In this document: positions 28,376 through 35,093 of the stretch, one piece after another
Numbering within the stretch: the first letter of the stretch is position 1
Layout: each line of letters opens with the position of its first letter
Assembly (NCBI GenBank): GCA_965247115.1
Contig: CBDFGR010000003.1
Location: 32,001-96,000 of the forward strand
Source: Myxococcota bacterium
Lineage (GTDB): Bacteria; Myxococcota_A; UBA9160; SZUA-336
Reading direction: 5' to 3'
Length of the DNA stretch: 64,000 bases
Translations under genes and position numbers: made by a program
Notes under the pieces: generated by a model
Told to the model about the DNA's origin: nothing
The model's database searches: none
What the model saw: the letters and a program-made list of their open reading frames with translations, nothing else

Positions 28376-29068
28376 CTAGGGCGAGGCCCGCGCTCCTCCA
28401 GGTACATCCAACGGATCGAGCAACCCGCCGCGTCGCCAACCCTCTCTGAGCAGCCACGTGCGTGCGGTCGCAACGGACCGAGGCCCCAGACGACGCTCGA
28501 CTCGCGCAGCACCTCTCTTCCAGCCGGAAAACCAGCGCCCCGAGGAGGCGCGATCCAGCGTCTCGCGCGTAGCGCCGCGATGGCAGGCCGCGTTGAGCAG
28601 CACGTACCGGATCGCATTCCGGACCTCGCGCGGCGTCTTCAGCACCCGCATGTGGTAGCGATCCGCCAGCAGCCCACCACGCCACTCGAACGCTCGCCGC
28701 ATCGCCCAGACCATCCTCCTGCTGAGAGACTTCATCCCTCGACCGAGCGCACCCCGATCCTTCGCCTCAACGATGAGATGCGCGTGATCCCGCAAGAGCG
28801 CGTAGTGCACCAGGCGAAACTCCCCCCGGTCACACCCCCGCGCCAGCGTCTCCTCAAACGCCCGCACAAACGCCGGAGCCCGCAATGACGGAGCACCATC
28901 GCGCACTCGCAGGGTCACGTGACACGGATGCCGCGACGCGAGACTCCGCCGACTTCGGTGGCGAACCAGCGGATTCGCCCCAGGCTTGCGTCCCGCCCCC
29001 TCGCGCCGCCCGCCATGACGCGCCAGAGGCCGTAGATGAAGCGAGAACTGTCGGTCTGACTTCTTCAA
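28376..29068 (-). mobile_element. Y1/HUH transposase (IS200-like, REP-associated RAYT type)
   Basis: PCHVTLRV, RLVHYALLRDHAHLIVEA (HUH), DRYH.RVL.TPREVRNAIRYVLLN (catalytic Tyr); AT-rich upstream tract at 29060-29112. Confidence 0.85.
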
Positions 29069-29157
29069 TTATATCACTAATTAGTGTAGATTAGGGCTTT
29101 CTATATATTCTGTCAAGGTACAGACCTGGTAGATGGTTGACATGTCAGAACCGGAAC

Positions 29158-29456
29158 ATCGCGGACTACGACAGCGAGCTTTACAGCATGACCGAGCTCT
29201 GCGAGCGCTTCGCGTGAGTCGCGAGACCAACGACAAGTGGATCCGACGCTACCGTACTGAAGGAGCTGCGGGGTTGGAGGACCGGAGTCGAGGTCGCTCG
29301 GTCGCGACCATGAGGAAGACCGGAAGGTCTTTCGGGTAGACCGGGCTCCTGCGAGCCCGTGTCTCGAAGCCAAGGACATCAAGGGAACAGAGAAAGAAGA
29401 CAACCGAGTGTTACCCATGTTGCCGGTCTAACCGTTACCCATGTCCCGGTTGAACA
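29158..29456 (+). mobile_element. IS481-family remnant (frameshifted N-terminal HTH plus right end; DDE core deleted)
   Basis: IADYDSELYSMTELCERF/(frameshift ~29212)/VSRETNDKWIRRYRTEGAAGLEDRSR; terminal repeats GTTACCCATGT at 29410-29420 and 29434-29444, ending ...TGAACA at 29456. Confidence 0.78.
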
Positions 29457-33941: not shown

Positions 33942-35000
33942 TCAGGCCTGGGCCAAAGCGGGCGCGATCCAGGTCTGCAAGCCGGCCAGCTCGGGCTCCA
34001 GCTCGGGGGCGCTGGCGAGAGGCGTGAACTGCCTTGCAAACTCCGGGTTCGCACGCCGGGCGTGCTTCACGATCGCGTCCGTCGCGACGATGCCGCCCGG
34101 CGGCGCGAGCTTGAGGATCCGGGCGGCGATGTGGACGCTCGGGCCGACGAGCGACACCGTCTGGCGGAAGCGCGTTCCCACGATGCCAATCACGACGGGA
34201 CCCATGTCGAGCGACAGGCGAGGCAGCGGGAGTGCGGGTAGCTCGACCCGCCGGCGCAGCAGCTCGTCGCGCAGACGAAAGGCGGCGGGCACCGCCTCCC
34301 CCGCTCCTTCGAAGTAGAGGAGCGCACCGTCGCCCTCGAAGTCGTGCACGTCTCCGCAATGGTATGCGCCCACGTCGATCACGATCTCCATGAACGCCTG
34401 CATGATCTCGAGGACCTCTTCGGCGGAGCGGCCCAGAACGAGGCGCATGGACGAGACCATGTCGACGAACAGGGCCACCATCTCGCGCTTCAGCGGTAGC
34501 TCGTGACCCTCGAGGAAGGTCTGTCCCGCGATGCGCGGCAGGAAGGCAGAGTCGGCCTGGATCCCCGCTGCCTCGGGGGCGCGGAACATCTCGGCCAGCG
34601 GAACTTCCTTCCACGCGGGTCCCGGCGCCGGAATCTCGCTGGAGACGGGCTCGAGGGGATAACCAGCCTCGATCCAGGCCTCGAGCCCTCCGCGCAGCGC
34701 CGCGACGTCTCGGTAGCCGTCCTGAACCAACCAGTTCGCGACCCGCGAACTCGAGGCCTCGCCTGTTCAGAGGCAGTAGGCGACCAGGGGACGGTCTCGC
34801 GGGGCGACCGGCAACAGGATCGGATCGCGATCGAGAGCGAAGGGAAGTGCACCGGGAATCCCACCGTGCTCACCGAAGCCCGCTGCGCGCCGCACATCCA
34901 GGAGGAGCGGCGCGGGCGGCGTCTCGAGTGAGGACTTCAGCTCTTCGGCCCCGATGCGTCGAAACTTTCCAGGGGAAACGGCGTCGGTGGAGGTCATCAC
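33942..35000 (-). CDS. Predicted selenoprotein: Sec-rhodanese domain fused to a class III nucleotide cyclase (UGA/Sec at 34767-34769)
   Basis: ORFs 34767-35000 and 33942-34730 are in frame and separated only by TGA. Read-through gives LLLDVR...GIPGA...LVAYCL-U-TGEASSSRVANWLVQDGYRDVAALRGGLEAW (complete rhodanese), then ALFVDMVSS...FEGDG...GPVVIG..G...VGPSVHIAARI (cyclase). SECIS-like hairpin downstream. Confidence 0.82.
34733..34751 (-). promoter_or_regulatory. Candidate bacterial SECIS element
   Basis: mRNA after the UGA: 15 nt spacer, then AGUUCGCG-GGU-CGCGAACU, a perfect 8-bp stem whose G-initiated apical loop starts 24 nt after the UGA. Confidence 0.75.
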
Positions 35001-35093
35001 CTGAGCCTAGCACCGACCGGCCGCTTCGCCGCACGTCTCGAACCCGGCTCGCCTATACTGGGCACCGTTCTCTACTGATTCCACGGAGGAGCC

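Follow-up and report, generated by a model that had tools for sequence, protein, structure and literature searches.

A predicted selenoprotein fusing a Cys-x-Sec rhodanese-like domain to a class III nucleotide cyclase-like domain

Rhodanese-like selenoproteins with a CxU motif have already been catalogued (form 3, NCBIfam NF041203, rhodanese_LYCAU; PMC13188914, Table 1; PMC9312934). Form 3 shares the rhodanese fold and a YCxU motif with the protein described here. However, it is a single domain of 126 profile positions, whereas our protein adds a cyclase domain of 180 residues. The nearest precedent for such a combination is the Prx-PP2C-type phosphatase selenoprotein fusion of the GOS survey (PMC2398784), which also joins a redox domain of a Sec family to a signalling-type enzyme domain bearing its own conserved Cys – though there the sensor has a Trx fold and the output is a phosphatase, and here they are a rhodanese and a cyclase. 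In overall layout, the protein resembles the BLUF-cyclases OaPAC and bPAC, which likewise consist of a small N-terminal domain, a linker, and a class III domain within ~350 amino acids, but which sense through a flavin domain rather than a Cys/Sec rhodanese. Cya2, a bacterial guanylyl cyclase, and Rv1900c, an atypical cyclase, are among the top fold matches of the cyclase domain and have other partner domains.

A 119-family catalogue of prokaryotic selenoproteins (2026, PMC13188914) lists no cyclase, and the word ‘cyclase’ is absent from the available text of PMC13188914, PMC9312934, PMC13326102, PMC2398784, and the deep-Sep supplements. Like the original prediction, whose author knew of no described Sec-rhodanese-cyclase fusion, we found no paper on a Sec-cyclase or rhodanese-cyclase selenoprotein in a search of mostly open-access literature; BSepDB or RefSeq may list Sec-annotated members. 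Cys orthologues have been automatically named ‘class 3 adenylate cyclase/rhodanese-related sulfurtransferase’ in JGI/NCBI records and form an ESM Atlas cluster of 67 members, but this is a machine label only, with no Sec form, function, or paper attached. Two further ESM Atlas clusters, of 59 and 98 cyclase-only proteins (254-259 aa), are probably truncated Sec forms. What appears to be new is the Sec form of the rhodanese-cyclase fusion; the CxU rhodanese selenoproteins and the auto-annotated Cys fusion were already known.

An in-frame UGA within a rhodanese-like domain

We analyzed a window of 64,000 nucleotides from a Myxococcota contig. Two minus-strand open reading frames lie in one frame, at 34767-35000 (77 aa, ending LVAYCL) and 33942-34730 (262 aa), and the plus-strand tca at 34767-34769 is a TGA on the minus strand. 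Translating 33942-35000 with TGA read as U yields 352 residues with zero further internal stops, ending at a terminal TGA (33942-33944). The whole gene (33942-35000, minus strand) thus read through would encode a rhodanese-like and a class III cyclase-like domain. Against NF041203 the joined protein scores 62 bits and the separate halves 14 and 19 bits, which indicates that the stop splits a single domain. A scan for promoters and terminators found none.

The rhodanese-like domain spans residues ~13-117 (34650-34964, minus strand). In the joined protein, Pfam Rhodanese matches residues 18-111 (36 bits, E=8e-9). NF041203 is the best NCBIfam match (62.3 bits, E 3e-17, profile positions 15-124 of 126; 58.9 bits in the genome search), yet it falls under its curated 115-bit cut-off. 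The N-terminal part of the structural model superposes on GlpE with Z 14.1 and rmsd 2.0 over 105 residues, and the CxU motif lies inside this fold. We counted conservation over 85 distinct full-length loci (45 Sec, 40 Cys). Cys76, the first residue of the motif (34773-34775, minus strand), is Cys in 85/85 and comes right after a model beta-strand ending at residue 75; D35, R37, and S84 are also invariant. As to which residue occupies the canonical rhodanese Cys position, sequence alignment favours 78 and the end of the model strand favours 76.

The in-frame TGA (34767-34769, minus strand) is predicted to encode selenocysteine 78, and comparison with homologs at this site carries much of the argument. 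Among the best 120 of 266 protein matches, 60 run through the site in one chain, every one with Cys at that position, as the proposed single rhodanese-cyclase fusion would have it. The remaining 60 lack the N-terminal half and start just 3' of the site, as expected if genes are cut at the UGA – so the prediction that gene callers would split this gene holds for database relatives. We also examined 154 DNA loci and could read the motif in 113; the other 41 are partial, stand-alone cyclase relatives, weak matches, or missed by the pattern. The site codon in the 113 loci is TGA in 58, TGC in 41, and TGT in 14, with no other codon found. Trp or Arg at this position, either of which would have spoken against selenocysteine, does not occur.

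The selenocysteine machinery follows the codon. A selA gene was found in 23/23 TGA-bearing genomes vs 6/26 Cys-bearing ones, in a set of 49 genomes of which many are incomplete and related ones are not independent. The 20 Cys-bearing genomes without a selA match are the gammaproteobacterial ones. The host encodes selA (522 bits), selB (257 bits), selD (321 bits), and tRNA-Sec, so the machinery called for by the prediction is present. Host selD itself carries an in-frame TGA, and a noisy selenoprotein motif scan of the host returned only selD and the rhodanese-cyclase gene as credible candidates.

A bacterial SECIS element is predicted at 34733-34751 (minus strand), with an 8-bp stem, a GGU loop that starts 23 nt past the UGA, and a folding energy of -9.9 kcal/mol. 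This hairpin agrees with the consensus given in PMC13188914: a loop of 3-9 nt with G in the first two loop positions, a 4-16 bp stem, a distance of 16-37 nt from the UGA, and an energy of -7.5 kcal/mol or lower. The hairpin past the host selD TGA also has an 8-bp stem, with the same length and build. Synonymous shuffling of the window gene gave p=0.005 for its hairpin, and p<0.1 was reached by 18/49 distinct TGA sequences vs 4/37 Cys sequences. A loose stem/loop rule by itself fails to separate the two groups, as 49/49 TGA and 34/37 Cys sequences pass it. A hairpin with a folding energy of -5 kcal/mol or lower is found in 48/49 TGA vs 9/37 Cys sequences, and one within the stricter limit of -7.5 kcal/mol in 26/49 vs 3/37. 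The Arg codon in the loop is CGG or CGT in 48/49 TGA sequences vs 8/37 Cys sequences. Of the nine window-type TGA sequences, 4 have U-A at pair 18-32 and 5 have C-G, a change that also alters the encoded residue (Asn/Ser); the remaining 40 TGA sequences have a different stem register, in which pair 18-30 is U-A in 23, C-G in 16, and U-G in 1. Judged from these alignments, compensatory pairs are present in two different predicted stem registers.

Two explanations of the TGA were rejected on these data. A sequencing error or nonsense mutation is ruled out by the TGA in other runs, the 58 TGA loci, and the selA association. Contigs from two runs of different studies keep the TGA unchanged and show no sense codon (X3, 34734-35014, identical to the window; X6, 34663-35014, with one difference away from the codon). 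A short metatranscriptome contig (X19, one 192-nt piece, 34707-34898) spans the UGA with 0 differences, and a further RNA run (X20) leaves the UGA uncovered. Genome-wide recoding of TGA as Trp is ruled out because Trp is never found at the site in homologs, because tRNA-Trp(cca) is encoded alongside tRNA-Sec, and because the gene's own stop is TGA. More generally, many database proteins of 233-273 aa start just past the site, as they would if the TGA were a true stop, whether through a nonsense mutation, an error, or the existence of two separate proteins. Such a stop would, however, cut the active-site loop in half. It also has to contend with TGA in 58 loci of several phyla and never TAA, TAG, or another sense codon, with the restriction of TGA to selA-positive genomes among those tested, with SECIS covariation, and with the agreement of independent runs; we find it hardly credible.

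On these sequence comparisons, UGA codon 78 almost certainly specifies selenocysteine. The two open reading frames parted by the in-frame UGA very likely form one selenoprotein with a Cys-x-Sec rhodanese-like domain and an atypical nucleotide-cyclase domain.

An atypical class III cyclase-like domain with an acidic base pocket

A linker of residues ~118-167 (34500-34649, minus strand), partly of low confidence in the model (pLDDT <50 at 144-148 and 150-158), leads to a class III nucleotide cyclase-like domain at residues ~168-346 (33963-34499, minus strand), which was identified by profile, sequence, and fold searches. The whole-protein model has a pLDDT of 87 and a pTM of 0.82. Pfam Guanylate_cyc (PF00211) leaves the window protein unmatched at E<=0.1, and the gene is absent from the 23 PF00211 matches in its own genome; some Cys orthologues carry a precomputed PF00211 match. 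A family profile matches OaPAC (the best cyclase, E=5e-12), Cya2, and CyaC, and Foldseek matches the domain to CyaC (E=7e-13). Fold comparison places Cya2 (Z 22.6), CyaB (22.4), and Rv1900c (22.0) in a tie, with the Cya2 superposition giving rmsd 2.1 over 179 residues and sequence identity to Cya2 and Rv1900c of 17-21%. GGDEF domains score Z ~12-13, and the Pycsar/Pucsar cyclases (producing cUMP, cCMP, or cGMP) score 18-19.5. As modelled, the C-terminal domain is of the class III fold.

Much of the catalytic apparatus is retained. The first and second metal-binding aspartate positions, Asp180 (34461-34463; aligned to OaPAC and CyaC) and Asp224 (34329-34331; profile and alignment), both on the minus strand, are each Asp in 85/85 loci. 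R261 and R279 are also invariant in 85/85, and R294 is present in 83/85; together these residues argue for a functional active site. The transition-state Asn and Arg positions fall at His290...Arg294 (34119-34133, minus strand), where the Arg is kept and the Asn is replaced by His in the window gene. Position 290 is Asn in 44 of the 85 loci, His in 19, Ser in 17, Pro in 4, and Thr in 1. Rv1900c likewise has His for Asn (PMC4886424), and active cyclases without the transition-state Asn are described in PMC4215837 and PMC4886424. The window gene also lacks the C-terminal Lys-Gly motif, which is present in at least 33/85 relatives. The Lys of this motif binds the gamma-phosphate.

The base pocket is unusual. 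Asp220 and Glu222 (34335-34343, minus strand) form an acidic pair: D220 is invariant (85/85), and position 222 is Glu in 80/85 loci and Gln in 5. D220 aligns to the adenine-reading Lys of OaPAC and CyaC, and E222 takes the place of a hydrophobic residue. The second base-reading position is Ala in 47 loci, Ser in 27, Thr in 5, Cys in 3, and Gly in 2. Relative to OaPAC and bPAC, three aligned active-site positions are thus changed in the window protein (Lys to Asp, Thr to Ser/Ala, and Asn to His). With Asp220 in 85/85 loci, the ATP-specific pair of Lys with Asp, Thr, or Ser is not what the family carries. Where guanylyl cyclases have a guanine-reading pair of Glu with Cys or a small residue (PMC2576301, PMC4215837), the family has Asp and, at the second position, a small residue. 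Guanylyl cyclases read guanine with a Glu four residues ahead of the second Asp (PMC2576301), and so share an acidic first base-reading residue with the window protein, though theirs is Glu and ours the shorter Asp. The additional Glu/Gln at 222 distinguishes the family from Cya2 and Rv1900c. The cCMP cyclase EaPycC reads the base with its -4 and -2 positions (PMC11224242); it has an Arg four before the second Asp, where the rhodanese-cyclase family has Asp, and a polar residue, Q144, two before it, where the family has Glu or Gln. A K-to-E change alone gave Ma1120 no GTP preference.

We consider it probable, from these residues and the fold, that the C-terminal domain dimerises and acts as a cyclase. 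Since Asp220 replaces the adenine-reading Lys, cAMP is an unlikely product. Our first guess is cGMP, which the pocket suggests at somewhat short of even odds; no product, or some other one, is a lesser possibility, and a pyrimidine cyclic nucleotide is less likely even than cAMP. An Asp that never varies at this point of the base pocket may also be the mark of a new class of cyclase specificity.

The same replacements could instead mean that this is a real selenoprotein whose C-terminal domain is not a cyclase, with nucleotide or metal binding regulating the Sec domain, or with some other chemistry. The acidic pocket (D180/D220/E222/D224/D265) fits such a reading, as do the changes in the window gene to the Lys, the Thr/Asp, the Asn, and the C-terminal Lys-Gly motif. 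So do the failure of Pfam to detect the domain, a fold match to a class III-like ATP-binding protein (6yii, Z 16.7), and the lack of a regular cNMP receptor nearby. Against it, the two metal aspartates and a pair of arginines on the phosphate side never vary (85/85 loci), Asn is the commonest residue at 290 (44/85), and Asn-less active cyclases are known. We regard a non-cyclase domain as unlikely.

Separately, we inspected 20 other cyclase domains of the host genome and found none with Lys at the first base-reading position, where they have E, Q, R, D, or T; the pattern was mis-anchored in about five of them. Non-canonical cyclases seem to be common in this host.

Distribution of Sec forms, Cys forms, and stand-alone relatives

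Family members occur in Myxococcota, Binatota, Tectomicrobia, Methylomirabilota/Rokubacteria, and Gammaproteobacteria. The gene is patchy, being found in 18/225 genomes of the host's class and 8/401 genomes sampled in its phylum. A quick tree of the 85 distinct full-length loci has the Sec/Cys label switching at least four times, and branches with good support require two of these switches. Since Sec forms fall to either side of the midpoint root, Sec may be the ancestral state of the family. The Cys-x-Cys form is used in organisms without Sec machinery, often within copper-resistance clusters. No longer fused forms (631-2000 aa) were found at E<=1e-20, which is weak evidence. In one genome (G034) the gene is in two pieces 125 kb apart (L015 and L025), one beside a run of N, which is probably an assembly break.

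Cys215 (34356-34358, minus strand) is a candidate partner for the CxU motif. It is present in 111/111 fused loci and in 0/22 stand-alone Rokubacteria-type relatives, which lack the rhodanese. This correlation hints at an internal thiol relay, though the pattern amounts to one or two evolutionary events. Of the 22 stand-alone relatives (L068-L074, L145, and L147-L160, including named Rokubacteria/Methylomirabilota records), 21 have a CxxxC motif inserted behind their third strand, which may act as a second switch, built into the protein and based on thiols or metal. Other cyclase-only relatives (P0147, P0148, P0151, P0152, and P0161) have, where the rhodanese would be, a short N-terminal stretch with Cys-x7-Cys, and P0152 has an extra, regulatory-looking C-terminal domain.

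The existence of rhodanese-less stand-alone cyclases, together with a linker that is partly of low confidence, leaves room for an active but ungated cyclase, with a Sec domain that deals with redox chemistry or metals on its own and was fused to it for the sake of co-expression. That the fusion is maintained across several phyla (36-87% identity), that the two-domain model has a pTM of 0.82, and that Cys215 tracks the fusion all speak against this, and we consider it quite improbable. The resemblance of OaPAC to the window protein in its sensor-linker-cyclase layout and length counts in favour of the proposed sensor-cyclase reading.

Gene neighbourhoods and the putative signal

The original prediction had named a persulfide- or redox-gated signal. 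A true sulfurtransferase in which Cys76/Sec78 takes up sulfane sulfur or selenium, and thereby gates the cyclase, would suit the rhodanese fold with its match to GlpE (Z 14.1), the Cys/Sec in the active-site loop, and the invariant D35, R37, and S84. However, the CxU/CxC pair differs from the single-Cys loop of aligned solved rhodaneses, and recurrent sulfur-metabolism genes were absent from the 129 + 87 flanking proteins that we scanned (129/138 listed neighbours at 24 Cys loci, and 87 neighbours at 23 Sec loci, comprising 83/116 listed plus four more from L030).

Metal genes, in contrast, prevail around the Cys forms. Metal-handling genes lie within three genes of 19/24 Cys loci and encode multicopper oxidase, P1B ATPase, CsoR-type repressor, MerR, cation efflux, and CusAB-like proteins. 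All but one of these 19 loci belong to a single gammaproteobacterial clade, with L031 a separate Myxococcota case; two of the 19 were counted only via DUF411, which we take to be CopG. In L031 and L055 the gene begins at the end of the ATPase gene. The Cys loci without a metal link are L028, L029, L042, L059 (NnrS, hemerythrin), and L032 (an unassigned HAD-domain fragment). Around the Sec forms, a metal link was found in 1/23 loci (L030, with MerB and an RND pump), and no neighbourhood was repeated across clades among the 23. The neighbours of the window gene itself are enoyl-CoA hydratases and MaoC-type dehydratases of acyl-CoA metabolism.

Because a recurring sulfur context is missing and copper or heavy-metal clusters surround the Cys forms, the neighbourhoods favour a general thiol-reactive or soft-metal signal over persulfide, weakly so for the Sec forms. 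Persulfide as the specific signal, as in the original prediction, thus appears rather unlikely.

Several individual loci deserve description. The recurring gammaproteobacterial copper cluster that includes the Cys form (L033, L037-L040, L044-L056, and L060) contains genes for an outer-membrane efflux protein, multicopper oxidase, cytochrome c, SnoaL/DUF4440, SAM methyltransferase, DUF411, P1B ATPase, and MerR; a SAM methyltransferase gene also adjoins the family gene in Myxococcota L031 and L032. At L030 (1452-4700) the Sec form stands beside MerB and the RND pump, and ~2.2 kb upstream there is another, broken copy of the N-terminal part of the rhodanese. In one Cys clade (L059:6178-7781 and L089) genes for NnrS and a hemerythrin-domain protein come after the family gene, a setting of the nitrosative-stress type. 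At L067 (3592-4770 and 7205-7876) the Sec form is near a DUF3095 gene and just upstream of a PilZ-domain gene. In a close relative (L026:4619-5827) an inserted DDE transposase separates the family gene from the enoyl-CoA hydratase gene. Elsewhere in the window, open reading frames at 28376-29068 (minus strand) and 29133-29339 (plus strand) resemble a REP-associated tyrosine transposase and an insertion-sequence fragment.

We also looked for a receptor of the putative product. A cNMP-binding neighbour was found at 5/154 loci (1.05 Mb of sequence with many short flanks; four of the five are distinct, one of them a non-member), which amounts to no enrichment, and the window's own locus (L007) has no cNMP-binding domain. 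Unlike Pycsar/Pucsar systems, rhodanese-cyclase loci have no CNBD-TIR or CNBD-TM effector gene as a regular neighbour. At L066 (2371-3522) and L137 the gene immediately 3' of the Sec form encodes an ion channel with a cNMP-binding domain, a possible local receptor. The host genome does offer receptors in trans, with 8 cNMP-binding domains; it also encodes 23 other class III domains.

Taken together, we propose that the gene encodes a 352-residue selenoprotein in which a Cys-x-Sec rhodanese-like switch for thiol-reactive stress controls a predicted dimeric class III cyclase, with cGMP or another non-cAMP nucleotide likelier than cAMP as its product; we put the probability of this reading at roughly 0.5. 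SelB would bind the hairpin 23 nt 3' of the UGA, leading to Sec insertion. Soft metals such as Cu(I) and Hg(II), or oxidants, would then bind or oxidise Cys76/Sec78, and this change, possibly relayed to Cys215, would alter cyclase output, while Asp220/Glu222 in place of Lys and a hydrophobic residue would disfavour adenine. A fuller version is more doubtful: that soft metal or oxidation at Cys76-x-Sec78 acts through the invariant Cys215 to switch synthesis of a non-cAMP nucleotide read by the Asp/Glu pocket, that about half of the family's database entries are cut at the UGA, and that the Cys form is a metal-triggered cyclase of copper-resistance islands.

To our knowledge, nearly every prokaryotic selenoprotein described so far is a redox or metabolic enzyme. 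A Sec domain joined to a second-messenger enzyme would put selenium directly into bacterial signal transduction, and the copper islands around Cys forms hint at a nucleotide signal triggered by metal. Nature provides both a Sec and a Cys version of this two-domain protein, and some family members come from cultured bacteria (Solimonas, Sinimarinibacterium, and Hydrocarboniphaga); the benefit of Sec over Cys and the role of CxU rhodaneses could thus be tested by a simple cyclic-nucleotide read-out.
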